From Ginglymostoma cirratum (Eukaryota), in the NCBI GenBank assembly GCA_024137785.1, contig JAHRHZ010000070.1:10774117-10838116 (forward strand): DNA of 64,000 bases, read 5' to 3'. Both the position numbers and the translations under genes were made by a program. The stretch's first letter is position 1. Every line of letters begins with the position of its first letter. The notes below the pieces were generated by a model that searched no databases, had not been told where the DNA came from, and worked only from the letters and a program-made list of their open reading frames with translations. Shown one piece after another: positions 11,538-59,195 of this stretch.

Positions 11538-12299
11538 CTGTGGAAAAGGACAAAACATAACATTACTACTAAAGAAAGAATATACAACATTTCTAGGGGC
11601 ATTTCTGAAATTGGAAATACATATAGAAGAGAAAAACAAATGGGAAGGAAAATCGGATGCCCAAGTGAAGAATTCACAACCTTCATTGTATGATTGCATT
11701 TCTACTTGCTCCATGTCAGTTGGGGTTATTTCCACCATAATCATTTATATTCCCACATCTCATACCATTCTCCATTAAAAGGGGTAAAGCAACTAAATTG
11801 GTTCTAGGTCACTGCTGGTGTAATTAAACACTACAAAATGAGTAAGGTTTTTAGATAGACATATCCTCCCTCAAGGAAATGCCCTTCACTAATCATGTAA
11901 CCCCTCCAAACAGGTTGGCAAAAATTTAGAAATCATGGAACTTATAAATGCAAAACTGCGTTCTACTTTGTGACAGTGTGCACCGACTTAACAATAAGCA
12001 ATGTTACTAAAAACAAGCTACAATGTGGGCTATGTTACCATCTGTCATCAGCAGATAATTTATTCAACAAATATAAAAGGAAACCTTTAACAAGTTATCT
12101 AAATTGATATCTTTACAATTGTTCTTTCGTTCCTTGTGGAACTATCTTTTGAGCATTTTACATTAAATCACCCAAGAGCCTTTGGAATACACAACTTAAT
12201 TTCAGTACGATTTACAAATGCCAGTATTATGTTATGAAGTTAATCAAGTGCCTCGTACAATTAATTACTTATGATAACATGACTGTGCTGATGGATATT

Positions 12300-12690: not shown

Positions 12691-15600
12691 AATTGTCACA
12701 TTTTGATAACAGTGGAACAGGGCAATGACTTGACAGCAGTCTAAACAGCTGCAGTGTCAGATGGAGATAAATTAAAGACAAACGAAATGGTCAGGCACTT
12801 TGGGAGGAGCAAAGAGTAGAAATCTGAAGTCATACGAGAATAGAATTCTGAGTTTGATCATCAGCCTTTCAAAGGAATATTGTGCAATTGGAAAGAATAC
12901 ATAGTATTGACACAAATGGCTCAGGCAAAGGTAGTAAGAGCAAATCAAGCTTGTTTTCTTGCACCAAATTAAGGTAAGTGAAAACGCCAGTATTAGTCAG
13001 TAACAATAAAGTATTTTGGAATGTAGCACATGAGGACATGTCTTTAAAATTAGAAGCCATTTGACTAAGTGGATTGTTATAAGAAATTACATGCACAATG
13101 CCTTAAAATTGTCAAATAATCACTACCCTGTTTAGTTCACTTCTACCACAGTATTTACCAGTTGATTGCAAACTCATATAATACCAGCAAGTGTAGAATA
13201 ATATGGTGATGGACAGGCTTGGGAATTAGAGACTCTCAAACAAGAGAAACATGTTCAGTATATCAATTCAATAAATGAATTGCTTCAACTTAAGTTAAAT
13301 AACCTTTTCACAATGCACAAACTACCTTCCCATAACTTCTATTATGTGATGCAAAGCATCAAAAATCAAAATCATATTGTCAAATTACAATTACCAATTA
13401 CAAATAATTACAAAGCAATCTTAACTGTTTTCCAAAAATAATAATTTTTTAAAAGCAACTTAGCAATGGGTGACATCAAGGTTAAACAGAAATATCATCA
13501 TAAACTGACACTGATAAAATAAATCAAAACCATGAGCTGATCTCTTTGCATAGGCATTGTCCCTCTCAGTTTCATATCCTTTTTTGCACCACATTGTGTT
13601 TGTCCACAGTAGCAGTTTTCAATGACATACATTTTTGACCTCTTCTTCAAATCCCTCATGACTTCAATCATTCAGCACAGGAATTTTATACAAAATGACA
13701 TCCTTAATACCACATTACTGGCAGAGCCTGCAGCCATTTTGGAATTTCCTTTGCCCCACCCACCCCTTGAAGAAATTTTGAAACCCACCTTCCCAATTAA
13801 TCAGTTAGTCACTTCACCTACATTTCCTCCAAAGTTCAGTCTTTGTTCTTTCATATTGTAGATAATTTATCCATACTGTCACATTAACTTGGGAATACAT
13901 GGGTAGCTCAATATTTCGATCTCTGAATCACGAGAACTGATCTCTCTGTTTGCCAAAAGAAGAACTTTGAAATTGGTTCTTCTCTAGGAATGCCAGGGCA
14001 CTCCTGCAAATGGCAACAGACGTTGTTCTCGTATCCAGATCATTACTCTGTTTGCTTGGATGACATTGCCTCAAAAAAAAGTGTTGGATGTGATTAAGTA
14101 CTCTTATAAGCAACACATTAGTGCCAGATATTTTACATAATGATGGGTTTCTTGTCATGGTTCACAGCACTTCGCTATGTGAACATGATGTGCTCTTTTG
14201 TTGCATTCAAAGAAATGTCTAGCTCAAAGACTGACTTTCTAACTTATGGGCAAACAATTCCAGACAAAATATGGAGCAATTTGCTCAACGCTCCTGGCAG
14301 TATTTGGATACTCAATTAGAAGATACGTTTCTGTCAGGCTGGTACACAGCACCACATTTCTCAAATTGATCATAATGAGTGGAGCTACAGAGCAACCAGC
14401 TGTGAAAGATTAACAAACACTTTTTTAAAAAGTTAAATGTAAGGAATTAAACATTTCAAGTAGAAATGGTAGGAAAGTGTGTGTATATGGAAATTCATTC
14501 TCTTTATTCTTGTATGACATCCAAAATAGAATGTCACCTTACATAAGTCATTTGTGTTGAACTCAAGAGTTCAGCTCAGTTGAAAGATGATGAACTTGCA
14601 ACAATTGTGGATGGGAATGACAGACTTCTTGCTGAAACTGTGTCATGAAGGAGAAGTGAACATTGGTACAGTATTTGTTTTAGCTACAAAAGGTCAACAT
14701 CCATCAAATTTGACATGAATGTACGTTTTTTACGTCTCCTTACCCAGTTTGACAGTTGAAGATTGAAAGGAACTGTACTCAATTACTTTACTGACAAGGC
14801 AGCAATGAAAATTTTGAGGGCAGTTACCACTAAATAGACCTTTCACTACAATATAACTGCAAGGTTTGCTGAACCTCTAAATAAAAGCAAAATCTTTTTA
14901 AAGGACTGGATACTTGTTTTAGAATTAAAAATACAAACCAGGATCAATTTTCCTCTGCAGATTTTTAAGTTTGGAACTACATTAATAATTCAGAATTAAA
15001 GGGAAACACTACGGATCTTTATTTCATTGGCCCTCATCTGTTTGATTTAGCATAAGAATATCCCCATCACTACGAAAAAAAGCAATCCGTTCTTCACAAG
15101 ACCATGAGCAACTGAAAAGAATTTGCAGCTCCTCTGTAACTGTGAATAAATACACTACTCAATGTGGTACTGAACCAAAAAAAAAGGATTGTCCTAATTT
15201 TAATCCTTGGCATATGCTGAGTTATCAAGATAGAGAATAACAGGGGTGTAAAAATTGGTTTTGCATACTTGGGATAGAAAGAAACAAAAACATCTACTAG
15301 AATTCCTACTCTTTTTTGGTCAGCAACACTCTGTTGGACTGTACAGGTAAATGAATATTAAGGTTGTGCTCAGTTCCAAATCAAATGATAATGATTACAA
15401 ATGACTAATTTATTGATTGAGAAGATGAGTTTCCAATTTTTATTTTTTGAACAAAGGTGGTGACGGAGAGGACATTTCAAATAGCTCAAAAACTCTGTTC
15501 CCAAATGGTGGTATGAAGGAGATGGTGATGTATAAAATGCTGAAGGCCTGAAGTCATGGAGGATTTGAAGAGGAGGGCAAAAATACATATCAGTGACGAC

Positions 15601-19926: not shown

Positions 19927-20566
19927 GTGTGTTTGACTGCAGAAATTTAAGTAACATCGTCAGTGCACCTCCAGTGAAGTGTTGGTGTTCTGTCCCACTT
20001 GTTATTTATATGCCTCGGTTTGCTGGGGTGGTTGGCATTACTTTTGCTTCTGTTGTTCAGTGGTTTGTATACTGGGTCCAGTTCAATGTGTTTGTTAATG
20101 GTGTTCGGGTTGGAATGCCAGGCCTCCAGGAATTCCTTGGCATTGCTGTTTGGCTTGTGCTATTATGGATGTGTTGTCCCTGTTGAATTTGTGCCCTTCG
20201 TTATCCACGTGTATTGAGACCAGTGAGAATTGGTCGTGTCTCTTGTTGGCTAGTTGGTGTTCGTGTATCCTTATTGTCGGTTTTCTTCCAGTTTGGCCTA
20301 TGTACTGCTCCTCACAGTCCTTGCACGGTATTTTGTATATTACGTTAGTTTAATTGGTTGTGGTAATGCGATTCTTTATGATCGTCAGCTGCGACGGCTG
20401 AAGTGAGAAAGTGATGCCAACCACAAAAGCAAACCAAGGCATATAAATAACAAGTGGGACAGAACACCAATACTTCACTGGAAATGCACTGACGATGTTA
20501 CCTAGCAGGGTGACAAAACGTCTGCAACCAAACACACCGGCTTAGTGAGCAAGTCTACAACCTCAA
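19927..20566 (-). mobile_element. Penelope-like element family C (Poseidon-like GIY-YIG C-terminus) with inverted terminal pseudo-LTR
   Basis: Reverse strand about 20350 to 20060 reads TNVIYKIPCKDCEEQYIGQTGRKPTIRIHEHQLANKRHDQFSLVSIHVDNEGHKFN...EFLEAWHSNPNTINKHIELDPVYKPL. About 19929-20045 and 20410-20535 are inverted copies of each other. Confidence 0.85.
20485..20526 (+). ncRNA. Degenerate hammerhead core (PLE family C)
   Basis: TGCA-CTGACGA-TGTTACCTAGCAGGGTGAC-AAAA-CGTC-TGCA. It has a 4-bp stem I and a stem II, but GAAA is mutated to AAAA. Confidence 0.5.
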
Positions 20567-21476
20567 CCATGACTATCTTCCTATGTGTCAGGTGTGACTC
20601 CAACCAGTACAGAGTTTGCACCCATTACCCATTGATTCCAGTTTTGCTAGGGCTCCTTGATGTCACACTCGGTGAAATGCAGCCTTGATGTCAAGGGCTG
20701 TCACACTCCACTCTCTTCTGGAATTCAGCTGTTATGTCCACGTTTGAAACAAGACTGTAATGAGGTCAGGAGTTGAGTGGTCCTGGCAGAACCCAAACTG
20801 TGTGTCACTAAGCAGGTTATTGCTGAGCGTGTGTTGCTTGATAGCACTGTTAATGACATCTTCCATCACTTTACTGATGATCAAAAGCACATTGATGGGG
20901 TGGTAATTGGCTGGGTTGGATCTGTCCTGGGTTTTATGTACAGGACATACTTGGGCAAATTTCCACACGGTCGGGTGGATGCCAGTGTTCTAACTGTACT
21001 GGAACAGCTTGGCTAGGGGAGCGGCAAGTTCTGGAGCACAAGTCTTCAGTAAAATTTCCAGAATATCGTCCAGGCCCTTAGCCTTTGCAGTAGCCAGTGG
21101 CTCTAACCGTTTCTTGATATCACGTGGAGTGAACAGAATCGGCTGAAGGTTAGCATCTGTAATGTTGGGGACCATAAAAGAGGTCAAGATGGATCATCCA
21201 CTCGGCACTTCTGGCTGAAATTGCTGCGAAAGCTTCAGCCTTATTTTTTGCATTGATGTGCTGTGCTCTTTCATCATTGAAGATGGGGATTTTTGTGGAG
21301 CGTCCTCCTCCAGTAAGTTGTTTAATCATCCACCACCAACCATTACTGGATGTGGCAGGACTGCAGAACTTAGATCTGATCCATGGTTATGGGATCGCTT
21401 AGGTCTGTATATCGCTTGCTGCTTTTGCGGTTTGGCATACAAGTAGTCCTGTTTGGTGGCTTCACCAGACTGACAG
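20567..21476 (-). mobile_element. Internal RT fragment of the SINE-headed LINE family (CR1/L2 superclade)
   Basis: ORFs LKTCAPELAAPLAKLFQYS and WKFAQVCPVHKTQDRSNPANYHPI...QFGF; collinear with about 35245-36105. Confidence 0.85.
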
Positions 21477-22666: not shown

Positions 22667-22997
22667 TAATATGAGACAGACAGTTAGGATAAAAGCAACA
22701 ACTTCAAGATGGCAACTCATACCTCGTGGAATTGCACAGGGATCAGCGTGAGGCCACAAATATTTACAATATCTGTTAATGACTTTGTAGCATTGCCAAG
22801 TTTGCGATGACACAAAAATTGGTGGGAAGGCAAATAATAAGGACGATACAAGGATTCTATAGGATGTACACAGGCAGCTTAAGTCAGTGGGTAGATGGAA
22901 TACAATGTAGGGAAATAAGAGGTTGGGCACTTTGGCAGGACAAATAGAAGAGCTGAATATTATTTGAATCTGCAGCACAGAGGAATCTGGAGGTCAT

Positions 22998-25560
22998 GGC
23001 GTCATACAGCACAGAAACAGACTCTTCAGTCCAACCAGTCCATGCCAACTATAATCCCAAACTAAACTAGTCCCACCTGCTTGCGCTTGGCCCATATCAC
23101 TCCAAACATTTCTTATTCATGTACTTATCCAAATGTACCCACATCAACCACTTCCTCTGGAAGTTCATTCCACACACAAACCACTCTCTGTGTTTCCAAA
23201 AAAAAGCCTTTTGTATCTTTTTAAAATCTTTCTCCTCTCACCTTAAAAATATGTCCCCAGTGGTGAAATCCCCCACCCTAGGGAAAAGACACCTGCCATT
23301 CATCTTTTCCATATCCTTCGTGATTTTATAAACCTCTACACTTCAGCTAAAAAATTTCTTGCCCATCCAGCCTCCCTTTATTACTCAAAACCTTTATTCA
23401 GGCAATATCCTGGTAAATCTCTTCTGAACACTCTCCAGCTTAATAATATCCTTCCTATAACAGGGAGACCAGAACGGGACACAGTACTCCAGAAGAGACC
23501 TTGCCAATATCTGTACAACCTCAATATAACATTCCCAATTCCTATAGTCTGATCAGTGGAGGCAAGCGCGCTTAACGTCTTGTTAACCACCCTATCTATA
23601 TGTGACACAAACTTCAAAGAATCATGTACCAGAACCCCTCGGTCTCGCTGTTCTTCGGGTCTGGTGACCCATCCTCAGAACGTATTCTGAGGAAGGGTCA
23701 CCGGACCCGAAACATTAACACTGTTTTTTTCCTACACAGATGCTGCCAGACCTGCTGAGCTTTTCCAGCAACTTTGTTTTTGTTCCTGACTTACAGCATC
23801 TGCACTTCTTTCAGTTTTTATTTAAAAGTGGACTCAGCATTGATCCCTGCGGAACATCACTGGTCACAGGCCTCCAGACCAAAAACAAACCTCTGCCATT
23901 AATCTGTCTCCAGCCATTAAGACATTTTTGTATCCAATTGGCAAACTCACCCTGAATCCCATGTGACCTAACTTTAATAATTAGTCTACCATGCAGAACC
24001 TTGTTAAAGGCTTTACTAAAGTCCAAGTAAACAATACCTACTGCTCTGCCCCCACCAATCTTCTTGACTATTTCCTCAAAAAACTCTACCAAGTTTGCGA
24101 GGCACAATTTCCCTCGTGTAAATCCATGCTGACTTTCCCTAATCGTTCCTTGCCTCTCCAAATGCATATAAATCCAATCTTTCAGAACCACTTTCAACCC
24201 AACTTACCCACCACCAAAGTCAGACTCTACAGTTCCAAGCCTTCTACTTACTTGCCTCCTTCATCACATTAGCCACTCTCCAGTCATCTGACACCTCACC
24301 AGTTACAGATGATACAAATATTTCTGCAAGGGGCCCCGCAATTTCCTCCCTAACTTCCCACAACATCCTAGGATATGCTAGGTCAGGTCCTAGAGATTTA
24401 TCCACCTTTATATCGACCTTATTTTCTAAGGCCTCCAGGCAGATCCTCTTCTGTAATGTGAACTGTTTTCAAAATATCAATATTTCTGAGTTCTCTAGCC
24501 TACATTTCTTTCTCCACAATAAAAACCAGTGCAAAATATTCATTTAATATCTCTCTCATCTTCTGAGGTTCAACACAAAGATGACTTCTTTGATCTTTAA
24601 GCGACCCAACTCTCTCCCTAGTTGCTGTCTTGTTTTTAACGCATTTGCAGAATCTCTTTGGATTATCCTTAACTTTATTTGTTAAGGCTATCTCATATCC
24701 TCGCTTTGCCTTCCTGATCTCCCTCTTAAGAATTACCCCACACTCTTTATATTTTTCAAGAGATTCATTTGAACCTAGTTGTCTATATCAAATGTATGTT
24801 TTTTTATTCTTGACTTCAACGTCAATATTCTTATTCATTCATTGTTCTCTAATCCTACCAGCCTTGCCTTACCTTTCATTCTGATATGAACATAAAGACT
24901 CTGAACTCTCATTATCACACTTTTGAAAGTCTCCCACTCACCAGATGTCACTTTACCTGCGAACAGACTACTTCAATCAATTTTTGTACATTCTTGTCCC
25001 ATACCCGTTAAAGTTTGCCTTACTCCAATTAAAGATTTTAATTTTTACGGAGGCTTATCCTTTTCCATAGCTTTTTTGAAACAAATTATGATCACAAGTC
25101 CCAAAGTATTCCCTTACTATCACTTCAGTCACTTGCTGTGTCTTATTACCCAAGAGAAGATCAAGATTTGCTCCTTCTCTAGGAATATTTACATACTGAA
25201 AGAAAATGTTCTTGAACACATTAACAAATTCTTCACCATCCAAACTTTTAACACTATGGTAATCCCAGCCAATGTTGGAAAATTAAAATCACTATTACAA
25301 CCTTATTATTCTTGAATATTTGTTCCTTAATTTCCCTTTGACTACTGGAAGCTCAATGGGGCAGTTCCACCTAAGGTGATCATTTTTTAAAAATTTCTAA
25401 TTTCAACCCATATATTTTCACAGGACAATTTTTCAGAAATATCTCTCATTACAGCAAAAATGTTTTCCTTAATCAAAAAACACCACACCCCTCCTCTTCT
25501 GCCTATAGCATCTGACACCCTGAACATTGAAGTTGCCAGTCACATCCATCCCTCGGCCAA
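22998..25560 (-). mobile_element. CR1 LINE (antisense, nested), itself interrupted by a PLE terminus
   Basis: ORF 23811..24197 reads IRESQHGFTRGKLCLANLVEFFEE...VYLDFSKAFNKVLHGRL...DVPQGSMLSPLL. EN remnant PREGANLDLLLGN...DHN; 3' tail near 23000. Confidence 0.85.
23654..23825 (+). mobile_element. PLE family B terminus with back-to-back hammerhead-core palindrome
   Basis: TTCGGGTCTGGTGACCCATCCTCAGAA-CGTA-TTCTGAGGAAGGGTCACCGGACCCGAA, followed by a tail shared with 62165-62274 and 63435-63572. Confidence 0.8.
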
Positions 25561-26681
25561 CGTCCTCGTGCATGAATCACAAAAAGCTAGCATCCAAGCT
25601 CAATGGGCAACAGGGAAGCCCAAATTTCTATTGGCCCTTATTTCAAAGGGAATAGAGAATGAAAATAGGCAAGTCTTGCTAAAACTATACAGGATATTAA
25701 TCAGATCATATCTGGAATACTGTGAATAGTATCAGTCCCTTTATCTAAGGAAAACAATATTGGAGTTGGAGGCAGTCCAGAAAATATTCACTAGGCTAAT
25801 AACAGGTATGAAGGGATTTTCTTATGACAAGAGTTTGAGTAGGTTGGGCTTGTAGTCATTGGAATTTAAAAGAACGAGAATCGACCTCATTGAAACAGAA
25901 GATTGTCGGGGAGTTGACGGGGTAGATGTTGACAGGTTGTTTTCTCCTGTCAGAGTGTCTTGGACCACAGGCATAATCTAGGAATAAAAGATCACCCATT
26001 TATGACAGAGATAAGGAGGACTTTCTGCTCTCAAAGGGTCAGGAATCTATGGAATTATTTATTGCAGAGGGCTGTCAAGGCTCGGTCATTAGTACGTTGA
26101 AGGCTGAGATAGATAATTTTTTTAATCAGTAAGGGAATCAAAGGTTATAAACATGGAAAAGTAGAGTTGAGGATTATCAGTTCAATCATCGTCATCTTAT
26201 TGAATGGCTGAGCAAACTGATGAGGAAAAAGCCTAGTTCTGCTTCTATGTCTCAAGTACGTAGGTGGCACAGATGCACAACCTTTAAAAATATAGGTAAA
26301 TTGCAAAAACAGGATTGAATGAGAAACAATATTAGAACATTTAAAAAAAAAAGAAAAAAAATAACAAACCCAAAAATATCAGCGGCACATTCACAACAAT
26401 CTACCTGTACGGCCAAAGTGAAACACAAAGTAACTAATGGGGAGATCATGGCGTAGCGGCAACATCACTGGATCAATAATTCAGAAACCCAGATTAATGT
26501 TCTGGGGACATAGGCAGATGGTAAAATTTTAATTCAATAAAATCTGGAATTAAAAACAGGTGACCATTTGAACTGTCATAAAAATCCATCTAGTTAACTA
26601 AGGTCCTTTAAGGGAGGATATCTACAATCCTTAACAGGTATGATTTACACATGACTCAGAAAACAGCATCATTGACACCCT

Positions 26682-27354: not shown

Positions 27355-27814
27355 CACTGACACCCTTCCAAACAGAACTGTTGGTTTCCTACCCACCCAA
27401 CTGCTGCAGCAGTTCAAGTAGGAGCTCACCACTGCCTTCCCCAGGGAAATTAGCAATGGGCAAATACAAATTACTAGGTAAGGTAAAAAAGACGTGTAAT
27501 TGAGATTGCAAGAATTAATCAATGTATGGTTTCTAACATTTAAAGGGGGGGGGTAAGTCACAGAATAAAATAGATTGAATATGATCTGTGTCATGAACAA
27601 TTTGACAGAACAAGTGACCTTTTCTTGTTCAATGCCTTTTCTCATTTTTTTCAATTAACCTTCAGTGTGAGGAAGTAATTTTGGGTCCAAGCTGTCCTAT
27701 CACACGAGTTAATATTTCTTTGGGAGGAGAAAGACTTATTGAATGATCTGAAGTCTTTTTTTTAAAAGAAGTACATTACTTTTGCTTGGATGTGCAGATT
27801 TTTTAAACTAATAT

Positions 27815-28150
27815 TCATAGGATGGAAGTGTTACTGGCAAGGCAAGCATTTATTCCCCTACTATCCTTGACAAATTAGAGTTGAATAGTTTTCTTGACAA
27901 ATGAATGACTTGTTAAGACATCTCACAGGACAGTTAGGAATTAGGGGGTCTGACATCATATATGGGTCAGACCTGCAAAGGAGAACAAAATTCCTTCCCT
28001 CGACATTAGCAAACCAAATGGATTTCTACAACAATCCTCCAGAGTTAAATGATCAACATGGTTGATACTAGCCCTTTATTCCAGATTTATTTAATTCATT
28101 GAAATTAATCTCTCCAGTTGTCTAAACTTACATTTTTGTATCATTAGTCC
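27815..28150 (-). mobile_element. Decayed copy of the tRNA-headed SINE family carrying a longer LINE-derived tail
   Basis: Aligns with 52785-53126 but has an additional LINE 3' segment. Confidence 0.55.
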
Positions 28151-29390: not shown

Positions 29391-29439
29391 GGCAAAATCA
29401 CTTCTTCTCAAAATACCAGGAAGACATATGGTCTAGAAA

Positions 29440-30005
29440 TGTAACTGAACCAGCCACAGCAGTTACAAGAGCAGGTTAGAGGCTGGATATTCTGCAGTGA
29501 CTAACTCATCTACTGACTCCTCAAAGCTTTTTCATCATCTGCAAGACACAAGTCAGGAGTGTGGGGAATATTCTCCACTTACCAGGATAGGCACAACAAC
29601 AAAACTATCTCATGCTGGCAAAAGCACCTCACTCAATTAGCATCCCATGCATCATCCTAAACATACACTCCCTCCACCTTCAGTACACTGTGATTGAAAC
29701 GCATACCATTTTTTTTTGAGATTCATTGCAGCAACTCAGTAAAGTTCTTCACTAGAGCTGAATAGAACAAGAGTGCATGCGCATACCAACACCAGCACCT
29801 GCAAATTTCAAGTCACGCACTGTCCTGACTTGGAACAATGTCAGTGTTCCTTCATCATTACAAGGTCAATATCTTGGACTTTACAACTTGAAGTTCTCTG
29901 CATGCAACACTGGCCACAGAGATTGAAGCAGGCAGCTCACAAACACCTTTTCAAGAGCATCTGGCGTGTGCCTCATCAACCTTGATTTCACATAAACAAA
30001 TTAAA
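29440..30005 (+). mobile_element. 3' fragment of the SINE-headed LINE family
   Basis: ...CAAGACACAAGTCAGGAGTGTGGGGAATATTCTCCACTT...GAAGCAGGCAGCTCAC is the reverse-orientation counterpart of about 34420-34870 and 58450-58910. Confidence 0.7.
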
Positions 30006-33932: not shown

Positions 33933-34332
33933 NNNNNNNNNNNNNNNNNNNNNNNNNNNNNNNNNNNNNNNNNNNNNNNNNNNNNNNNNNNNNNNNNNNN
34001 NNNNNNNNNNNNNNNNNNNNNNNNNNNNNNNNNNNNNNNNNNNNNNNNNNNNNNNNNNNNNNNNNNNNNNNNNNNNNNNNNNNNNNNNNNNNNNNNNNNN
34101 NNNNNNNNNNNNNNNNNNNNNNNNNNNNNNNNNNNNNNNNNNNNNNNNNNNNNNNNNNNNNNNNNNNNNNNNNNNNNNNNNNNNNNNNNNNNNNNNNNNN
34201 NNNNNNNNNNNNNNNNNNNNNNNNNNNNNNNNNNNNNNNNNNNNNNNNNNNNNNNNNNNNNNNNNNNNNNNNNNNNNNNNNNNNNNNNNNNNNNNNNNNN
34301 NNNNNNNNNNNNNNNNNNNNNNNNNNNNNNNN
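33933..34332. other. Assembly gap (400 N)
   Basis: Run of N read directly. Confidence 1.
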
Positions 34333-34391: not shown

Positions 34392-37300
34392 TCTTATTCA
34401 AGCATGGAATGTGGGAATTACTGGTTGGGCAACTTCATGAACTGCTGCAGTCCATTTGGTGTAGCAACAGCAAGCCAATAGTTCCAGGATTTTGCCCGAG
34501 TGACACTGAAGGAACCACGATGCATGTCCAAGTCAGGATGTTGTGTGGCTTGAAGAGGAGTGTGCAGATGATGATGTTTCTGTGTATCTGCTATCCTTGT
34601 CCTTCTAGTTGGTAGTGATCCTGGGTTTGTAAGTTGCTGTCTAAGGAAATCTGGTGAATTTCTGCAGTGAATCTTGTAAATGAAACACATTGCTGCTATT
34701 GATCATCAGTGGTGGAAGGACCAAATGTTTGTGGATGTGGTGCCAATTAAGTGGGCTGCTTTATCCTGGATAATGCCAAGCATCGAGTTTTGTTGGAGAA
34801 GGACTTATCCAGCACACTTCTGAATTGTGCCTTGTAGGAGATGCGTTACTCATTCCAGGATTCCTAGCCTCTGCCCTGTTCTTCTAGCAATGGTATTTAT
34901 AGGGATAGTTCAGTTTCTGGTTAATAACAACCCCAGAATGTTGATAGTTGGGTATTCAAGGATAGCAATACCATTTTATGTCAAGGGTAGATGGTTAGAT
35001 GGTCTCTTGTTGGAGATGGTCAATGTCTGGCACTTGTGTGGCACAAATGTTCCTTGCCACCTGTCCAAATGTGGATATTGTCCAGTCTTGCTGCATTTAG
35101 ACATGGAATGCTTCAGTATCTAAAGAGTCATAAATGTTGCTGAACTTTTGAACTTAGGTTGGAGGAAAAGTTATTGACAAAGCAGTTGAAGATGGTTAGG
35201 CATAGGATACTCCCCTGCATAGAGCTGAGATTACCGTCCTCCAATGACCACAATCATCTTCCTTTGTGCCAGGTATGACTGTAATAGCAGAGTTAACTCC
35301 CTTTTTTGCTAGGGCTCCTTGATACCATACTAGGTCAACCGTGAAGTCAAGGCATTCACACTGTTCTCACTGCTGGAATTCAATATTTTGTCCATATTTG
35401 GACCAACGCTGTAATGAAGTCTGGAGCTTAGTGGCTGTGCCAAATTCAAACTGAGTATCAGTGATAATGTTATTGTTAAGCAAGTGCTGTTTGGCAGCAC
35501 TGTTAATGGCACCTTCATCAATTTACTGATGTTTGAAAGTAGATTGACGGGGTAGTAACTGGTCTAGTTGGATTTTTCCTACTTTTTCTGTACAGGACAT
35601 ACCTAGGCAATTTGCCACATTATTGGATATATTGCAGTGTCGTAGCTGTAACAGAACAGCTTTGGTTAGGGGCTCAATTAGGTCGGGACCATGTCTTCAG
35701 TATTATGGCCAGAATATTGTCAGGGTCCATACCCTTTGCAGGATTCAATGATTACCGTCCTTTCTGGATTGCACATTAAGTGAAATTTGTTGAAGATTGG
35801 CATCTGTGATACTAGGGACCTCAGAGGAGTGCAAGATGGATCATCCAATCATCACCTGTGGCTGAAGATCATTGCAAGTTCTTCAGCCTTAATTTTTGCA
35901 TTGATGTGCTGATTTTCCCCCATTATTGAGGATGGGAGCATTCATTAAGGCTACACCTCCTTTTAGTTGTTTAGTTGTCCACCACCGTTCATGACTGGAT
36001 GCGGCTAGACTGCACAGCTTAGATCTGTTGCGGAATCGCTTAGTCCTATCGGTCAGGTGCTGTTTGGCATGCAGGTAGTCCTGTTTTGTAGCTTCACCAG
36101 GTTGACATCACATTTTTTGGTATACCTGGTGCCTTACACACCCTCTTGCATGCTTCACTGAGCCAAGCTTGATTCCCTAGCTTTACAATAGTGACAGAGT
36201 GGAAATTATATCAAACCATACGGTTACAGGTTGTGCTTGAGTACAATCTGCTGCTGCTGGTCGTGGCCCACTGCATCCCATGGACAGCCAGTTTTAAGTT
36301 GCTAGATCTGTTCAAAGTCTATCCCATTTGTCACGGTGATAGTGCCACACATGATGGAAAATATGCTCAATGTGAAAATGGGACTTCATGTCCACAAGGA
36401 ATGTGCGGTGGTTACTCTTACTAAAGCTGTCATTGACAGATGCATCTGAGGCAGGAATATTGGTGAGGGTGAGGTCAAATGTGTCTTTCTGGGCTTGTTG
36501 GTTCCCTTGCCATCAGCTGCTTGAATAGCTACAGCAGTGTCCTTTAGGTCTTGGCCAGCTCTGTCAGTACTTACGCAGCCAAGTCATTCTTTGTGAAAGA
36601 TATTGAAGTCATTCATCTGAACTACAGTCTTGTGCCCTTGTTACTCTCAGTGCTTTCTTTGTCTGTGGTGTTCAACATGGAGGATACTCTAGGTGGAACT
36701 GAGGGGAAGAGTCATGGTAACTGGCAGGAGGTTTCCTTCTCCACGTTTCAGATGTACAAGGGTGTTGCCAAGGTTGGAGGGTTTGAGCAATGGGGAGAGG
36801 CTGAATAGGCTGGGGCTATTTTCCCTGGAGCATCGGTGGTTGAGGGGTGACCTTTTAGAGGTTTATAAAATCATCAGGGGCATGGATAGGGTAAACAGGC
36901 AAAGTCCTATCCATGGGGTGGGGGAGTCCAGATCTAGAGGGCATAGGTTTTAGGTGAGAGGGGAAAGACATAAGAGGGACATAAGGGGCAACTTTTTCAC
37001 GCAGAGGATGGTACGTGAATGGAATGAACTGCTAGAGGAAGTGGTGGAGGCTGGTACAATTATACATTTAAAAGGCATCTGTATGGGTAAATGAACAAGA
37101 AGGGTTTAAAGTATCATGTGACAAATGCAGGCAAATGGGACTAGATTTATACTGGATATCTGGTCAGCATAGGTGAATTGGACCGCAGGATCTGTTTCCG
37201 CGCTATATATCTCTATGACTCTATGATGCTTTAGGGCTTACTGAGGCCTGAAGTCAATGTTAAAGGCTGCCAGGCTAAGTACCTCCAGAGTTTATATTAC

Positions 37301-37802
37301 TGTGCAGCCACCTCTGCTGGGTTTTGTCCTGACAGGATGTACCCAAGGTTGATGGTGTTATTCTCTGGCACATTGCGTGTAAGATATTATTTCATGAGTA
37401 TGACTATGTCAGGCTGTTGTTAGACTAGACTGTGAAATAGCTCTCCCAATCTCGGCAATACCTTCAGATATCAGTAAGAAATATTTTGCAGGGTCAACAA
37501 GCTCGAGATTCCTGTTGTTGTTTCTGGTGCCTTAGTCAACGCTATGTGGTTTATCCAGTTACAGTCCATTTCTCCTTTCCAAAGGCTGATATAACTGAAT
37601 GGCTTGCTAGGCTATATTAGAGAGCAGTTAAGAGTAAACCACATTGCAATGTATCTAGAGTCAAACATATCCCAGACCAGGAAAGGATAGCAGTTTTCCT
37701 TTCCTAAAAGCCATCATTGAGTGAGCTGGGTTTTTACAAATTTAGCCAATGATTTAATGGTCATCATTAGGACTTTTAATTCCAGACTTCTATTGAACTC
37801 AA
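34392..37802 (-). mobile_element. Near-full-length decayed EN-RT LINE (~2.9 kb excluding the nested CR1) whose 5' end is the SINE body; no room for an ORF1
   Basis: 5' region 37620-37802 aligns with the SINE body at about 52850-53035. APE motifs QQPDIVIL, DFN and SNH(SDH) follow, then an RT region collinear with 20567-21476 and a 3' tail matching the SINE tail. Confidence 0.8.
36753..37226 (+). mobile_element. CR1 3' fragment nested in the LINE above
   Basis: ERLNRLGLFSLEHRWLRGDLLEVYKIIRGMDRV and tail CTCTATGACTCTATGA. Confidence 0.9.
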
Positions 37803-38160
37803 CGTCAAAGATTTTCTGTGGGACCGCTTTACAATTTGAGCAATGTGTATTTAAGATTTGAGGTCAGGCTGCAAGAACCTTTAGTGCTATAAATGAATTA
37901 GGGCTGGACATTAAACAGTCTAAGTCAGGAGTGTCTTTGGATCAACAGTTTCATATGGCAAACATAAACTGCATCCCAATAAGTCACCTGTCCTTTGCAT
38001 CAAGGAGCAGACATTTGATTGAACAGTTATACTCATCAAGCTCACGGAGTGCACAATCAATCATAATGTATTGGAACAGAATACTGTGATCAAACAGGCA
38101 AGAAGTCTTGACAGAAAGTTTTAAAATTACGAAATTAAATTCAGAACAATACACTGTCAA
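37801..38160 (+). mobile_element. Copia relic, RT segment
   Basis: NVKDFLW (decayed HVDDFLW) then LGLDIKQSKSGVSLDQQFHMANINCIPISH. The preceding LAGIF lies at 34374-34388 on the other side of the LINE insertion. Confidence 0.7.
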
Positions 38161-38629
38161 GTTTTCAGGCTGCAGTAAGCCAGATGATATTATAAAGACA
38201 GCATATTTTATTTCTCTGCATTTTTAGTTGTAGACGGAAATGGGAAAAGGACTGTTTCAAAACCTTGAGGATTGTCGATTGGATTACTGCACTTCTTAAA
38301 AGCAAGTTATCTGACTTTCATTGCATGTGCTGTCTGCATTGAACAAACAGCAACGAGTGGGGGAGGTTACTGCAGACCAGCTGGAGATAACACAGTGTGG
38401 AGCTGGAGGACGACAGTAGGCCAGGCAGCATCAGAGGAGCAGGAAAGTTGACGTTACGGGTCAGGACCCTTCTTCACAAATGGGGAGTGGGAAGGGAGCT
38501 CAGAAATAAATACAGAGAGGAGGGGTGGGGCTGGGGAAGGGAGATGGGATGGTGATAGGTGAGTGCAGGTAGGGAGTGGTGGGGATTGGTCAGTGAGGTA
38601 GGAGGAGCGGATAGGTGGGAGAGAAGATG

Positions 38630-40330
38630 CATCATAGGAGCAGGAAAGCTTCACGTTTCGGGCCTAGACCCTGCATCAGAAATGGGGGAGGGGAAGAGGG
38701 TTCTGAAATAAATAGGGAGAGGGGGGAGGCGGATAGAAGATGGATAGAGGAGTGGATAGGTGGAGAGGAGGCAGACAAGTCGAAGAGGCGGCGATGGAGC
38801 CAGTAAAGGTGAGCGTAGGTGGGGAGTTAGGGAGGAGATAGTTCAGTCCAGGGAGGATGGACAGGTCTAGGGGGCGGGATGAGATTAGTAGGTAGGAGAT
38901 GGGGGTGGGGCTTGAGGTGGGAGGAGGGGATAGGTGAGAGGAAGGATAGGTTAGGGAGGCGGAGATGAGCTGGGCTGGTTTTGGGACGCGGTTGGGGGAG
39001 GGGAGATTTTGAAGCTTGTGAAATCCACATTGATACCATTGGGCTGCAGGGTTCCCAGGCTGAATATGATTTGCTGTTCCTGCAGCCTTCGGGTGGCATC
39101 ACTTGTGGCATTGCAGGAGGCCAAGGATGGACATGTCGTCTGAGGAATGGGAGGGGGAGTTGAAATGGTTCGCGACTGGGAGGTGCAGTCGACCGTGTCT
39201 CCCGCATTTCCCGTAACTCATCCCTCACACCCCGTCCCCGCAATAATAACCAAAAAAGAAACCCCCTCATCCTCACCTACCACCCCACCAACCTCCGGAT
39301 CCAACGCATCATCCTCCGACACTTCCGCCATCTGCAATCTGACCCCACCACAAAAGACATTTTTCCCTCCCCACCCTTATCTGCTTTCCGGAGGGACCAC
39401 TCCCTCCACGACTCCCTTGTCCGCTCCACACTCCCCTCCAGCCCCACCACACCCGGCACTTCTCCCTGCGACCGCAGGAAGTGCTACACTTGCCCCCACA
39501 CCTCCTCCCTCACCCCAATCCCAGGCCCCAAGAAGACTTTCCGCATCAGGCAGATGTTCACCTGCACATCTGCCAATGTGGTATATTGCATCCGCTGTAC
39601 CCGTTGTGACTTCCTCTACATTGGGGAAACCAAGCGGAGGCTTGGGGACCGCTTTGCAGAACACCTGCGCTCAGTTCGCAACAAACAACTGCACCTCCCA
39701 GTCGCAAACCATTTCAACTCCCCCTCCCATTCCTCAGACGACATGTCTATCCTTGGCCTCCTGCAATGCCACAAGTGATGCCACCCGAAGGCTGCAGGAA
39801 CAGCAAGTCATATTCAGCCTGGGAACCCTGCAGCCCAATGGTATCAATGTGGATTTCACAAGCTTCAAAATCTCCCCTCCCCCAACCGCATCCCAAAACC
39901 AGCCCAGCTCATCTCCGCCTCCCTAACCTGTCCTTCCTCTCACCTATCCCCTCCTCCCACCTCAAGACCCACCCCCATCTCCTATCTACTAACCTCATCC
40001 CGCCCCCTTGACCTGTCCGTCCTCCCTGGACTGACCTAACTCCTCCCTACCCCCCCCCCCACCTACGCTCACCTTTACTGGTTCCATCCCCGCCTCTTCA
40101 ACTTGTCTGCCTCCCCTCCACCTATCCTCTCCTCTATCCATCTTCTATCCGCCTCCCCCTCTCTCCCTATTTATTTCAGAACCCTCTTCCCCTCCCCCAT
40201 TTCTGATGAAGGGACTAGGCCCGAAACGTCAAGCTTTCCTGCTCCTATGATGCTGCTTGGCCTGCTGTGTTCATCCAGCCCCACACCTTGTTATCTCGGA
40301 TTCTTCAGCATCTGCAGTATCTTTTATCTC
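38630..40330 (+). mobile_element. Young Neptune-like PLE: Cys-rich linker and GIY-YIG endonuclease, ~560-bp inverted arms, 14-bp TSD
   Basis: PCDRRKCYTC...FTCTSANVVYCIRCTRCDFLYIGETKRRLGDRFAEHLRSV. Arms 38630-39189 and 39688-40252. TGGGAGAGAAGATG at both 38616-38629 and 40331-40344. Confidence 0.92.
40203..40230 (+). ncRNA. Minimal hammerhead ribozyme core (PLE family A)
   Basis: CTGATGA-AGGGACTAGGCCC-GAAA-CGTC. Confidence 0.65.
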
Positions 40331-40832
40331 TGGGAGAGAAGATGGACAGTTTGTGTCAAGTCAAGGAAGCGGAGGGCTGGTTATGGGATGAGGCCGGGGT
40401 GAGGAGATTTTAAAACTGATGAAATCCATGTTTAGGTCATTGGACTGTAGGCTCCCGAGGCAGAATATGCCAAAAGGTGCTCTCGTTTGTCGCGAACAGA
40501 GCGCAGATGCTCTAAAAAACGGTCTCCGAGTCTCCGCTTGGTCTCACCAATGTAGAGGAGGCCTCATTGAGAGCAGCGGATGCAGGAGAGCAAGTTGACA
40601 GATGAGCAGGTGAACTCCTGTCTAATGTGGAGGGCTTGTTTTATGCCTTGAATGGAGGTGAGGGGGGAGGTGTAGGGGCAGGTGTAACACTTCCTGCGGT
40701 TGCAGGGAAAAGTGCCGGAGTAGTGGGGAGTGTGGAGCAGACGAAAAAGTCATGGAGAGCACGGTCCCTACGAAAGGCAACTAGGGATGGGGAGGAAATT
40801 TTTGATTAGAACCTGCTGGGAGGTCTGAAATA

Positions 40833-41479
40833 GAAAGTGCTGTCCAGGTTGATAGGGTTGTTAGGACGGCGTATGGTGTGTTAGGTTTTATTGGTAGACG
40901 GATTGAGTTTCGGAGCCATGAGGTCATGTTGCAGCTGTACAAAACTCTGGTGCGGCCGCACTTGGAGTATTGCGTACAATTCTGGGCGCTGCATTATAGG
41001 AAGGACGTGGAAGCATTGGAAAGGGTGCAGAGGAGATTTACCAGGATGTTGCCTGGTATGGAGGGAAGGTCTTATGAGGAAAGGCTGAGGGACTTGAGGT
41101 TGTTTTCGTTAGACAGAAGGTGGTTAAGAGGTGACTTAATAGAGACATACAAGATGATCAGAGGATTAGATAGGGTGGACAGTGAGAGCCTTTTTCCTCG
41201 GATGGTGACGGCTAGCACGGGGGTACATAGCTTTAAATTGAGGGGTGATAGATATAGGACAGATGTCAGAGGTAGGTTCTTTACTCAGAGAGTAGTAAGG
41301 GCGTGGAATGCCCTGCCTGCAACAGTAGTAGACTCTCCAACTTTAAGGGGATTTAAACGGTCAGTGGATAAACATATGGACAATAATGGAATAGTGTAGG
41401 TTAGATGGGCTTCAGGTTGGTTTCACAGGTCGGCGCAACATCGAGGGCCGAAGGGCCTGTGCTGCTCTATGTTCTATGT
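40833..41479 (+). mobile_element. Young CR1 3' fragment with uninterrupted ORF2 C-terminus
   Basis: ORF 40878..41399 reads LQLYKTLVRPHLEYCVQFW...FFTQRVVRAWNALP; tail CTCTATGTTCTATGT. Confidence 0.92.
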
Positions 41480-41656: not shown

Positions 41657-42800
41657 CAGAGTCATGAGGCATCATAGAATCAGAGATATACAGCATGAAA
41701 CAGACCCTTCGGTTCAACTCATCCATGCTGACAAGATTTCCCAAACTAAACTAGCCCCATTTGCCTGTGTTCCCTCTAGACGTTTCTTATGCATGTACAT
41801 GTCCAAATGTCTCTTAAATATTAACTGTATCTGCATCTATCACTTTGGTAGCTCATTCCAGATATGAACCTCCTTCTGTGTGAGAAAGTTGCCTCTCAGG
41901 TCCTTTTCAAATCTACCACCTCTCATCCTAAAAATATGCCCCTTAGTTTTGAACTCCACCACGATAAGGAAAAGACCTTGGCTATTCACCTTATCTATGC
42001 CCCTCATGATTTTATAAACCTCTATAAAGGTTACTCCTCAACCTCCTATGCTCCAACGAAAAAGGTCCCAGCTTATCCAGCCTCTTCTTATAACTCAAAC
42101 CCTCTAGTTCTGGTAATACCCTTGTAAATCTTTTCTGCTCCCTGTCAAACTTAATAGTATACTTCCTATAGCAGGGCAACCAGAACTATACACAATACTC
42201 CAAAAGTGGCCTCACCAATGTCCTGTATAGGCATAACATGACATCCCAACTCTTAGACTCAACGCTCTTTCCCATGAAGCAAGCATGCCAAACACTTTCT
42301 TCACCACCCTGTCTACCTGTGACACCACTTTCAAGGAACTATATACCTGAACCCCCAGGTCTTTGTTCACCAATAACATAACTGCGCAAGTCCTGCCTGG
42401 GTTTGTCTTATCAAAATGCAACAGCCACATCTATCTAAATTAAACTCCATCTCAACGGCAATCTTCAGCCCATTAGCCAGCCGATTAAGATCCCGTTATA
42501 CTCTTAGATATCTACTTTCACTATCCACGGTGCCACCAATGTCAGTGTCATCCACAAACTTATTAATCATGTTTCATATATTCTCACTCAAATCGTTTAC
42601 ATAAATGACAAAGAACACTGAGCCAGCACCAATCCTTGCAGAACATGGCTGGTCACAGGCCTCCAGTCCAAAAAACAATCTTCTATCACCATCCTTGTCT
42701 CCTACCATCAAGCCAATTCTGTATTCAACTGGCTAGATCTTTCTGGATCCCATGTGATCTAAGTTAAACTGGAATCAGTGGGTATCAGGGACAGACTCTC
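41657..42800 (-). mobile_element. CR1 3' fragment
   Basis: DLGVQVYSSLKVVSQVDRVVKKVFGML; same family as 22998-23650. Confidence 0.85.
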
Positions 42801-49450: not shown

Positions 49451-49467
49451 GCTTGATTCCCACATCT

Positions 49468-49745
49468 CAGAGTCACGGAGTCATACAGCACTGAAACAGA
49501 CCCTTTGGTGTAACCAATCCATGCCAAACATAATCCCAAACTAAACTAGTCCCATCTCCCTACTCCTGGCCCATACCCCTCCAAACCTTTTCTATTCATG
49601 TACTTATCCAACTGACTTATAAACGTTGTAATTATGCCCACATCCATACTTCCTCAAAGTTCATTCCACACACAAACCACCCTCCGTGTAAAAAAAATTG
49701 CCCCCATGTCTTTTTTAAAGCTCTCACCTCTCACCTTAAAACTCT
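49468..49745 (-). mobile_element. CR1 3' tail fragment
   Basis: Matches about 23000-23250 (GTCATACAGCAC...CCCAAACTAAACTAGTCCCA). Confidence 0.8.
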
Positions 49746-50212
49746 GCTCCATCTACCACATTCCAGGACTGCTGACTTCCAACTCAGCTAAAATTACCTC
49801 AAATTCCCATTGCTGAATATGGTCATACCCTCATCAACATCTTCACCATCTCCAACCTTGATTTCCCAATAAAGTTTCCTCACTAACATATCTTTGCCTA
49901 AACCCCTCCGTTCTTTCTATATCTCCCTCCATGATTCAATTTCAATACTGCATTTGTCTGACAGCACCTTCTGTCATTTCCCTCAACTTCCCACATATGG
50001 CCTGCTCAGGCTCCCTGATCTTCTCTATAAGGATGTCTTCCCAAATGAAAAGCTGCAAGTATTGTTGTATCTAGTAGGACTCTAAGGCCACTGTTTTATT
50101 ACTTTAAATATAGTTCCTAAGTCTGTAGCTTTTACACATTGACACAGATGTGGATTGTTAATACTTAATAATTGTAGATATGGAAAACTGACGCTAACTT
50201 AGATACAACTAG

Positions 50213-52784: not shown

Positions 52785-53126
52785 ATTCATTCATGGGATG
52801 AGGGATGTTGCTGGCTAGGCCAGCATTTATTACGCATCCCTACTTGCCCAGATGGCAGTTAAAAGTTAACCACATTGCTGTGGGTCTGGAGTCACATGTA
52901 GGCCAGAGCAGGTAAAGATGGCCATTTCTTCCTTAAAGTACATTAGTGAACCAGACAGTTTTTTTCCCTGACAATCCACAATAGTTTCATGGTCATCATT
53001 AGACTCCTAATTCCAGATTTTCATTGAATTAAAATACCTCCACCTGCCCTGGCAGAATTTGAACCCTGGTCCCCAGAATATTACCTGGGTCTCTGGATTA
53101 ACAGTCCAGTGATAATACCACTAGGC
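52785..53126 (-). mobile_element. tRNA-headed SINE (~340 bp) with conserved central body (possibly Nin-domain type) and LINE-shared tail
   Basis: A-box GGCCTAGTGG, B-box GGTTCAAATT, body CTGGTTCACTAATGTACTTTAAGGAAG...GGCCTACATGTGACTCCAGACCCACAGCAATGTGG, tail ...CATCCCATGAATGAAT. Confidence 0.8.
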
Positions 53127-53994
53127 CTCCTCACGATCTTAATCTCCTCCCATTGGTACCGTGCGTTGTCTGTGTGACCTTGTTTTGTAAGTTGAGTTAG
53201 CAGAGAGATGGTGATTGTAAACTTTTCATTTAATTCACTCATCTATCCTCTCTCTCCTTTCCTTTGGCGTTCCCTTCACCTTTCTTCAATGTCCCCCTGT
53301 GACTACTGTCCTTTCACTATCCCCCTTGATATTCCTGCTCTTCTCCAGTCCTAAACCTGTCCAGATCCCCATATCCAGTGTTAGGTTTATGCTGCACCTT
53401 ATTCAAATCATATCTTTGTTCCTCCACAGCACTCTACACCATTGTATTCCCCATCCTAAATGTGCATTTCCCCACTCTTCCTTGTCTCCCTTCCTCCTAG
53501 CACAGTGATTCTCCCGTCTGCATTCAAGATTCCTTCCAGTATCCTGCCAACTACGTCCATTAAACTCCATTCCTTTCTACCTAAACCACCCTTATTTGAA
53601 CCTTTCAAGTTGAGCCCCCTTTTCAATTAAGTATTGTTCGCCAGCCCAAGTCAGGCTTAATGGCATTAGCTATATGGCTGCTTCATTTGGGAAAGCTTTT
53701 TGAGTCAGTCAGGCTTCACAGCTTACACTGAAAATGCTTTAAGAACTACAAGTGAGACTATACATGATTGAGCTGGTTGACCTGATGAAGCTTCACTCCC
53801 TACACTATGTGTTTGTGTAAAGAAGTGGCACGGTTATGAAGGAACCAAGTCAGTGACAAAGTTAGCACTCATTAGAGCTTGGAGGAACAAGTCTACCCTA
53901 CTAGTCACATGCCTCACATAGTCAGGTTTGTGAAGTGTTCTCCGATTTTGCCTTACAAGACTGCAAACATGAACACAATTCCTGTTCTTTTTTA

Positions 53995-54338
53995 ATTCAT
54001 TCACAGGATGAAGGCATCGCTGGCCAGGCAGCATTTCTTGCCCATCCCTAATTACCAGAAGGCAGTTAAGAGTCAACCACATTGCTGAGAGTCTGGAGTC
54101 ACATCTAGGCCAATCCAGGTAAGGACGGCAGTTTCCTCCTCTAAAGGACATTAGCGAACCAGATGAGTTTTTCCTCGACAATCGACAAATTCATGGTCAT
54201 CATCAGACTCACCAGACTCTAATTCCAAATATTTACTGAATTCAAATTCCACCATCTGCTGTGGCAGGATTTGAACCTTGGACCCCAGAACACTATATAA
54301 GTCTCTGGATTAACAGTCCAGCGATAATACCACTAAGC
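53995..54338 (-). mobile_element. Second full copy of the same tRNA-headed SINE
   Basis: Collinear with 52785-53126 over its whole length. Confidence 0.8.
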
Positions 54339-54892
54339 TGAGTGTGAACGAGTTTTCATGGCCAGTTGCTGAATGCAAAAAGAGATTTCCTACCGTCAAG
54401 GTCAGCAAGCTGACCCACTTGAAAGCTTCAGATGATTTCATTACAGAATTTTAACCCAAAGACAGGAAACTGAATTTGTGCCACCTGCTCAATTAATTTC
54501 TCCCCCAACCTCTTTCCAGGTGGACCTGCAAGATTCTGCCATTGAGAACATGACAATAGAGGGTTAACTTTGCTCTTATCTCAGTATCAGTGCAACTTTA
54601 GAGTCATTTGTATCTACAATTGGCTCATTTAACTTTCTTTAGTGCCTCCCCAGCAGTCAACTGTAGGGGATTACCTGTAGTCCTTTCTGTTGAGTTATTT
54701 CCTTCCCAGAGTGTTTACGGCACCACTGGAATACCCTGGGAAGAATACCCAAGGCATTAGCCCTGACCGTACCAAAAGATACTGTTGCAGATAATGAAGT
54801 TTAAAGTCCAGGTGACACCTCAGTACAGTGAAGTGCTAGAATGTCGATGTAATCTTTCAAAGAGACATGAAATAAGAAAAAAGTATGTTACA

Positions 54893-55260
54893 GGGAGATA
54901 GTGGCATGGTGGCAATGTCACTGGATTTGCAATTGGCTGCCTTCTGAAACAGCCATTCAGTAGCATCAACCACTAAAAATTGTCGAGAAATAAACAAACT
55001 GTTGGGCCACTCGGCATTGACTAAGGCAATGGAAAAGACAATGGCAAAGTCCTCCCTGCCAATATTACGGGAAAACTGCCAAAATTGGGAGAGTTGTTTC
55101 ACAGGTTAATCAAGTCTGACATAATCATAATAATACTCATGGAATCATACTTGACATACATTATCTAAAACATCAACACCATCCCTGGGTATGTCCTATC
55201 CTATCAGCACAAATACTGCCCCAGCCAGTGTTGCCCACATTCTTTCCCAATGAACAAAAA
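54893..55260 (+). mobile_element. Tripartite derivative: SINE head, LINE endonuclease start, shared tail
   Basis: GGGAGATAGTGGCATGGTGGCAATGTCACTGG, then LPKLGELFHRL...ILMESYL...TIPGYVL (matching about 37330-37560 reverse), then AAATACTGCCCCAGCCAGTGTTGCCCACAT. Confidence 0.7.
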
Positions 55261-57820: not shown

Positions 57821-58387
57821 CAGATTCCGGTCTTAGTCTACATAATGAGGAACAGGACCAAAAGTTTAATTTGTTAAAAAAAAGATTGACGAGGATAAGA
57901 TTACAGTGCTAAAACAATATGACAGTTACAGATAACTAAAATATTCTTCTGGATGTTTTAGAGAGAAATGGGCAAGGGGAGAAAAAGACTAGGTATTAAA
58001 AGAAATACTGGCATGCCACATTGTTTTAGGATGCCAAATAATGACCAAGTTCAGAACAATCTCTAATAAAGTTAGTTATCACAACAGGACCATCACTAGC
58101 TGGAAGACTAAAATCAAGATAATTCACAACTGGTTATTACAGCTAACATAATTCTAGGGTCACATTGTGGATAGAGGTGCAGTCTCACAGCTTATAAAGG
58201 GTGAACGATACCTTTGCTCTTCTAACTGAGCTCCTGCAAAACGAGTATGACGGTAATTTAAGATCTCATGGAACCAGAGCCCAAATCTTTATTCCCATTC
58301 ATTGCAAATAATTATATTTAGTAAAGCCTGTTCATATTTGTCCATAAGAGTATGGACCTCACTATTTTCTAATTAATTTAGGCCTGA

Positions 58388-59195
58388 GAGATTTGCTGGC
58401 TGTGCCAGGATTTATTGCCCATTCTGGAAAAGGTAACAGTGGGATGCCTTCTTGAACTACTACAGTCCATTCAATGTAGCTACACTCATAATGCTGTTAG
58501 GAGCAAAGTTCCAGCGACAGCTATATTTCCAAATCAAGACTATTAAGTGGTTTGGAGGTGAATCTCTAAGTGATGGTGTTCCCATGTACCCTATCCCTTG
58601 TCCTTCTAAAGGTAGTGGTTGTAGGTTTGGAAGATGCTATCTAAGAAGCATTAGTGAATTTCTGCAGTGCATCTTGGAGATGATATGCAATGCTGCTTCT
58701 GAGCGTCAGTGTTGGAGGGAGTGAATATTTGCAGATGTTGTGCCAATTAAGTGGCCAGCTGTGTCCTGAACAGTTTCAAACATTTTGAGTGTTTTTAGAG
58801 CAATCATTCAGATAAGTGGTGAGTGTTACATCACACTGCAGATCTGCACATTATAGATGGTAGGCGGGCTTTGTCAGGGGGTGAGTTACTTGCTACAGGA
58901 TTCCTAGCCTCTGACCTGCTCTTGTTGCCAAAGTATTTATCTGGCCTGTCCAGTTTATGGTCAATGGTAATCCCGAGGATGTTGACAGAAGTGGAGTCAA
59001 GGGTAAATGGTTAGATTCTCTCTTGTTGAAGATAGTCTTTGCCTTGCACTTGTGTGGCATGAATGTCACCTGCCTAGGTCTAGATATTTGTCCAAGTTTT
59101 GCTCCATTTGGACATGGACTGCTTCAGTATCCAAGGAGTCAGAATGTGCAATACCAGCATCAGTCATCAGTCAACATCCCCTATTCTAACTACAC
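58388..59195 (-). mobile_element. 3' fragment of the SINE-headed LINE family, including its terminal tail
   Basis: Collinear with about 34400-35130. Terminal TTGCTGGCTGTGCCAGGATTTATTGCCCAT matches the SINE tail TTGCTGGCTAGGCCAGCATTTATTACGCAT. Confidence 0.8.

Follow-up and report, generated by a model that had tools for sequence, protein, structure and literature searches.

Anatomy of a decayed LINE with a SINE-like 5' end

The window, i.e. the whole stretch of 64,000 nucleotides from Ginglymostoma cirratum that was analysed, contains on its minus strand a long LINE copy at 34392-37806, which from 5' to 3' is built from the following parts:

37620..37806, minus strand: body as in the short copies, the 5' truncation lying directly after the B box (the nhmmer match reaches 37820)
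37488..37619, minus strand: linker from body to endonuclease, missing from the short copies S1 and S2, found in published consensus rows and in the copy 54893-55235
37230..37487, minus strand: APE endonuclease (EN), N-terminal part, with stops and frameshifts
36750..37229, plus strand: CR1-type 3' fragment of 480 nt, a later insertion into the endonuclease in opposite orientation
36250..36749, minus strand: APE endonuclease, C-terminal part (NDFN, SNH)
34480..36249, minus strand: tether, reverse transcriptase (RT) and C-terminal region, decayed
34392..34479, minus strand: frame end and 3' tail common to the short copies, the tail being partly deleted in the long copy

The inserted fragment 36750-37229, which by its motifs is probably CR1, had been missed in the original prediction for this DNA, as had the second head-linker-EN copy at 54893-55235; once the 480-nt insert is removed, the long copy measures 2935 nt. 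Its coding region carries many stops and frameshifts, and the endonuclease motifs lie in different frames (QQPDIVIL at 37419, NDFN at about 36610, SNH at about 36416); the long copy is a dead, 5'-truncated LINE. In frameshift-aware alignments with the full-length relative P0031 (Pfam RVT_1, Exo_endo_phos_2 and Exo_endo_phos) the downstream endonuclease piece scores 98, the best of 25 shuffles reaching 43, and the upstream piece scores only 45 with the best shuffle at 39. Homology in the RT is detected by tblastn (E 2e-16 to P0031, 1e-26 to P0002) and extends to about 34480, its nearest proteins being those of shark and ray. Pfam detected neither EN nor RT on 11 raw frames, and two of three word-based protein searches gave no match because the copy is decayed.

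The body aligns in the same orientation as in the short copies, i.e. 37797-37624 with 53028-52855 of S1 at 69.8% over 179 nt (E 1e-12), and with 54172-54062 of S2 at 72.3% over 112 nt, scores reached by 0 of 1000 shuffles each. This bears out the original prediction that 37802-37620 on the minus strand is the body of the short copies at 52785 and 53995. The run from body to endonuclease, which had been put at about 150 bp, does lead into EN; its length is smaller, the endonuclease beginning at about 37487 and leaving a linker of about 130 nt. The expected succession of EN motifs, RT and a tail shared with the SINEs held as well, with EN/RT homology to P0031 and with a tail (34392-34430) whose match to the S1 tail is equalled by 0 of 1000 shuffles and to the S2 tail by 4 of 1000. 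The long copy ends 3' in AATAAGAAGGG without a clear A-run, S1 and S2 ending in A-runs, and it shows no clear target duplication.

Upstream of 37806 nothing head-like rises above shuffle level (297 and 366 of 1000 shuffles score equally), by which a decayed head was rejected and the view that this copy is cut off before the tRNA head is confirmed. A relic SINE tail at the start of the linker was also rejected, the likeness to the tail being matched by 51-597 of 1000 shuffles. A contig from another organism covers 37194-38279 with 79 differences; the truncated copy is therefore old and no assembly artefact.

The surroundings are rich in other features. An assembly gap of 400 N (33933-34332) lies about 60 nt beyond the LINE 3' end within a Penelope-like repeat. 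In a Penelope-like region, 38629-39189 and 39688-40253 form a 566-bp inverted repeat with 95% identity, and the plus-strand frame 39164-39778 gives a GIY-YIG match at its cut-off. Short Penelope-like repeats contain CTGA.GA...GAAAC/T words at 23687, 26773, 27227, 33920, 40203 and 62263, which we take to resemble hammerhead ribozyme cores; Rfam detected no hammerhead ribozymes in the window at E 0.1. A 373-aa open frame without Pfam match (10580-11701, minus strand) shows a presumed similarity to a KAT6-type histone acetyltransferase exon, and the repeats of the window may lie in or near a KAT6-type gene.

Short copies with a tRNA-like head and varying junctions

The short copies, which share their 3' tail with the partner LINE, are found at the following positions:

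52785..53127, minus strand: short copy S1, with tRNA head containing A and B boxes, body, LINE tail and A-run; candidate 6-bp target duplication AAGATC
53995..54339, minus strand: short copy S2, junction identical to S1
26440..26680, plus strand: copy C3, head and body, 5' part, with a Penelope-like insertion after it
27357..27465, plus strand: LINE 3' end of about 110 nt, resuming past the Penelope-like insertion (0 of 1000 shuffles as good against two LINE ends)
27813..28116, minus strand: short copy C4, more diverged, with about 25 nt of linker retained before the tail

The pattern AGTGG-gap-GGTTCRAAT, representing A box, gap and B box, matches the window twice, once in S1 and once in S2, where 0.04 matches would be expected. 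Both heads can be aligned to the Rfam model of tRNA, the alignment including D, anticodon and T arms besides a long variable insert, at 16 bits and so below the 29-bit cut-off; ARAGORN found no tRNA and the whole-window Rfam scan was empty. The tail of S1 folds into a stem-loop with a z-score of -3.2, that of S2 reaching only -0.6. For the body, an identity with SacSINE1/Deu was rejected, the Deu core motif being absent at 3 mismatches and no likeness being seen by eye; the Meta domain motif is absent from it, and comparison by eye showed no resemblance to the UCON3 domain. A body motif had 0 matches in viral, prokaryote and metagenome collections, which hold few animal genomes, and four motifs had 0 occurrences in literature full texts.

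S1 and S2 pass from the body directly into the tail without linker. The two pieces 26440-26680 and 27357-27465 lie on either side of a Penelope-like insertion, which has a 10/11 direct repeat at its borders. They probably belong to a single short derivative whose breakpoint differs, and could alternatively be two adjacent fragments. Together with C4 this gives up to three junctions among four short copies, and these breakpoints lean toward repeated internal deletion of a long element. The reverse order would have the short element as an older parent SINE with a Zenon tail, the LINE capturing its head and body and the short copies being its direct descendants. We regard this as improbable, even though it is compatible with the model preferred below, template switching swaps modules among SINEs, one junction is common to S1 and S2 as within a SINE family, and headless Zenon elements outside elasmobranchs imply that the head came from elsewhere. 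It has to accommodate the different breakpoints, C4 retaining linker and C3 apparently retaining about 110 nt of the LINE coding end, and a homologue of the body outside elasmobranchs was not found in collections with few animal genomes. Of the two origins originally offered for the SINEs, the differing junctions incline to internal deletion.

The head-body-linker start is a trait of elasmobranch CR1-Zenon

Further copies of the same LINE family were identified in the window:

54893..55235, plus strand: second long-type 5' fragment with the first ~33 nt of the head, an internal deletion, the body end, linker and EN start
20565..21475, minus strand: internal RT fragment (RVT_1 E 8.5e-12)
58385..59177, minus strand: 5'-truncated copy with tail
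29429..29990, plus strand: 5'-truncated copy, more decayed

In the copy 54893-55235 three parts score at a level that 0 of 1000 shuffles reach in each case: head 26/33 (to C3), linker 81/129, EN start 112/173. A survey of the CR1 group reports, in its accessible parts, Zenon in elasmobranchs, coelacanth and hagfish, all Zenon surveyed being without ORF1 and with a poly(A) tail (PMC13343379, Genome Biol Evol 2026). Judged by its DNA identity with the first 400 nt of the published rows, the long copy is placed in this already catalogued elasmobranch CR1-Zenon LINE. With about 130 nt between body and EN there is no space for an ORF1, and EN and RT form a single frame by homology. The missing ORF1 had correctly been noticed and had been read as an oddity; since Zenon generally lacks ORF1, as in all elements in the accessible parts of the survey (PMC13343379), it is ordinary in this lineage.

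All seven elasmobranch Zenon consensus rows, representing five species and 2886-3314 nt in length, begin with head, body and linker (PMC13343379 Table S2, first 400 nt, by eye). These rows come from white shark, stingray, whale shark and catshark, with three from dogfish (CarCar, HypSab, RhiTyp, ScyCan and SquAca Zenon). An A box is followed in them by an anticodon-like stem, then by a B box that is degenerate in the ray, and by the body of S1/S2 and the linker; two rows reach the EN start. Judged in the same way on the first 400 nt, the hagfish and coelacanth Zenon rows have an unrelated start, none of the three showing head, body and linker. A 25-nt linker motif derived from the rows has a single match in the window (37588-37612, 1 mismatch, 0.00 expected); a second linker motif of 24 nt has no window match at 3 mismatches. 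Searching the first 400 nt of the 1,004-row CR1-group sheet with five exact B-box words matched six rows, all of them elasmobranch Zenon, and a body word recovered from this sheet the seven elasmobranch Zenon rows plus one unrelated lungfish row.

Assembled contigs of all four public runs pile up over 37399-37664, i.e. linker and EN start, at hundreds of times the unique flank, as summed depth and not as copy number: the summed contig depth is 1031-1192 versus 2-4 in X1 and 13068-14249 versus 41-59 in X8. The accessible part of the survey gives hundreds to thousands of long Zenon copies per genome, with denominators of 59-2313 in Table S3 (PMC13343379).

The seven rows and the second window copy share the junction, and the SINE-like 5' end is therefore a family trait. 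EN starts are not preceded by a different upstream sequence in the elasmobranch Zenon rows or in the second window copy, and the predicted master element, a unit of tRNA head, body, linker and EN-RT of about 3.3 kb, is found in all seven elasmobranch Zenon rows and reflected in the copy 54893-55235. The layout of head, body, linker, EN, RT and tail is constant across sharks and a ray, and we have hardly any doubt about this. A one-off or site-specific chimera, in which a SINE landed upstream of a truncated LINE or a LINE inserted into SINE copies, is very improbable. A chimera would fit the abundance of both SINE and LINE and the lack of a clear target duplication around the long copy; the junction recurs, however, in the second window copy and in seven rows of five species, the body of the long copy is not followed by a SINE tail, and no SINE remainder was found beyond the LINE 3' ends at 34392, 58385 and 29990. 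As a general explanation the chimera is refuted by the consensus rows, the contig pile-up and the copy 54893-55235.

The closest full-length non-shark locus compared, L001, has neither head nor body. L001, a relative with 43% to P0031, shows at 465-730 a short 5' region without tRNA head and without ORF1 and a basic lead-in before EN. In the shark element the EN frame opens by eye with a basic R/K-rich stretch (linker region 37488-37560 and published rows). A lost N-terminal extension was considered as proof of capture and set aside as weak, P0031 having about 115 aa before EN, and the lead-in of L001 being short and basic as it is in the shark element.

Transcription and translation of the long element

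Further CR1-like fragments of the window (40806-41399 and, on the minus strand, 41669-42720, 22993-24203, 49463-49747 and 7802-8284, the first being on the plus strand) were used for comparing T-runs. In eight pieces of the Zenon family, 6200 nt in all, there are 13 T4 and 2 T5 runs, compared with 26 T4 and 12 T5 in seven CR1-like pieces that total 4424 nt (p about 0.001 in a simple rate test). The Zenon counts are not below those of their own shuffles (for T5, 50 and 76 of 300 are as low), and T4 runs in non-shark relatives amount to 0-2.5 per kb in four of seven loci counted and 3-5 in the other three, these seven being drawn from 13 loci. T-runs that can be compared between Zenon copies are mostly private to one, with one T4 near the 3' end common to two. 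The proposed check for TTTT found none by eye in the first 400 nt of the seven elasmobranch Zenon rows, which are about 3300 nt long; as a sign of Pol III it loses its force, headless relatives being equally poor in T-runs. T-run depletion was accordingly rejected as proof of Pol III, the counts being compatible with Pol III without favouring it. Low-threshold ARAGORN hits from non-shark relative loci were treated as noise.

Use of Pol III by the long element would have slightly less than an even chance, and a Pol II or read-through route would be rather unlikely. The latter is part of an alternative which keeps the same fixed layout and has the long RNA made by Pol II, either by read-through or from a promoter in body or linker, the head being a passenger or serving as a structured RNA in processing, protection or translation, and Pol III acting on short copies only. 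We consider this alternative unlikely as well. It would fit Pol II being the general LINE polymerase, the U1/U2-headed Tx1 families as small-RNA heads without internal promoter, headless relatives that are equally poor in T-runs and the degenerate B box of the ray consensus. Shark rows of four orders retain both the A and the B box and begin at exactly the same 5' position, which is easier to understand if the promoter is used; this argument is weak, as activity of the short copies or RNA structure could conserve them too.

Pol III RNA is uncapped, so translation of EN-RT from it would need an unexplained route. By eye, six of the seven rows have an ATG in the linker; in the ray row it seems to be in another frame than EN, and in one dogfish row in the same frame. 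The most far-reaching reading, an autonomous coding LINE which captured a tRNA promoter and has been transcribed from it by Pol III for as long as sharks and rays have evolved, whose uncapped 3.3-kb RNA is translated and which gives birth to SINEs in one step by deletion, is put forward tentatively and would sooner be doubted than believed.

A model for the origin of head and short copies

We propose a model, to which we give even chances, according to which the long copy derives from a Zenon master element consisting of a tRNA-derived head, a body of about 200 nt, a linker of about 130 nt, a single EN-RT frame and a stem-loop/poly(A) tail, the head acting as internal promoter and the SINEs arising by deletion. 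An ORF1-less ancestral Zenon would have acquired head and body by template switch, displacing its own 5' UTR, before the shark/ray split about 270-300 million years ago; because the non-elasmobranch Zenon rows and L001 are headless, a single gain of the head among elasmobranchs is the simplest reading. With its A and B boxes every new full-length copy would then carry a promoter of its own inside the element, the most likely enzyme being RNA polymerase III. As is established for LINEs, the EN-RT protein would recognise the 3' tail and use target-primed reverse transcription to copy the RNA. Template jumps during copying would remove the interior, resulting in head-body-tail units of about 340 nt as ready-made SINEs that may be mobilised by the same enzyme.

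In the usual divide Pol III serves short non-coding elements and Pol II coding ones, and an abundant LINE with a fixed tRNA head would blur this divide. It makes testable whether a natural Pol III transcript serves as mRNA for a protein of about 1000 aa, and whether a SINE body is the 5' UTR of a living LINE, an open question of PMC5786205. For annotation, some shark sequence masked as "SINE" is the 5' end of a Zenon LINE.

Comparison with known systems

Compared with elasmobranch Zenon as described in the accessible parts of PMC13343379, the window element shows no structural difference, sharing body, linker, EN start, a single EN-RT frame and the absence of ORF1; an A-rich tail would be shared as well, and the master element is likewise about 3.3 kb long. 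Family and consensus are already published there, and the tRNA head is not mentioned in those parts: 'tRNA' and 'promoter' occur 0 times and 'SINE' once, in a reference title, the accessible preprint text having 0 occurrences of tRNA, promoter and Pol III. A clade-wide tRNA or Pol III head on Zenon was not found in the full-text literature, a scope outside which most subscription papers, Repbase Reports and Dfam notes lie. For a possible BovB/Bov-tA precedent the literature search gave no confirmation.

Among shark elements, SacSINE1 and the Deu-SINEs also combine a tRNA head with a LINE tail (PMC5499810, in its accessible parts). SacSINE1 uses the L2-2_CM tail, as given in these parts, and the Deu core is absent from the body in the window, the two being set apart by the core motif and not by the whole SacSINE1 sequence. 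RTE-1_DAn and relatives are mentioned as LINEs with a tRNA-like sequence, which was set aside as a nuisance hit, its position not being given, and bipartite SINEs derived from RTE/Vingi demonstrate that a SINE body can be a LINE 5' UTR (both PMC5786205). In the bipartite SINEs the head was added after deletion, whereas in shark Zenon it sits on the autonomous element, and shark Zenon belongs to the CR1 group, which is unlisted as a source of SINE bodies in that survey.

The crocodilian families Tx1-2_Crp, Tx1-4_AMi and Tx1-11_Crp carry U1 or U2 5' heads common to SINEs, according to the accessible text of Kojima 2015 (PMC4494074), and a small-RNA head on a LINE is therefore no new category. 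As far as this text describes them, the Tx1 heads differ from those of shark Zenon in having no internal promoter, in belonging to another clade and in being confined to a few crocodilian families, compared with all elasmobranch Zenon sampled. In Lepidoptera, Zenon repeatedly yields short internal-deletion elements composed of 5' and 3' ends, named Persaeus, with microhomology at the break (PMC6740152, accessible parts). Persaeus is described there as having neither tRNA homology nor a Pol III promoter, whereas the shark derivative would be tRNA-headed because its parent is.
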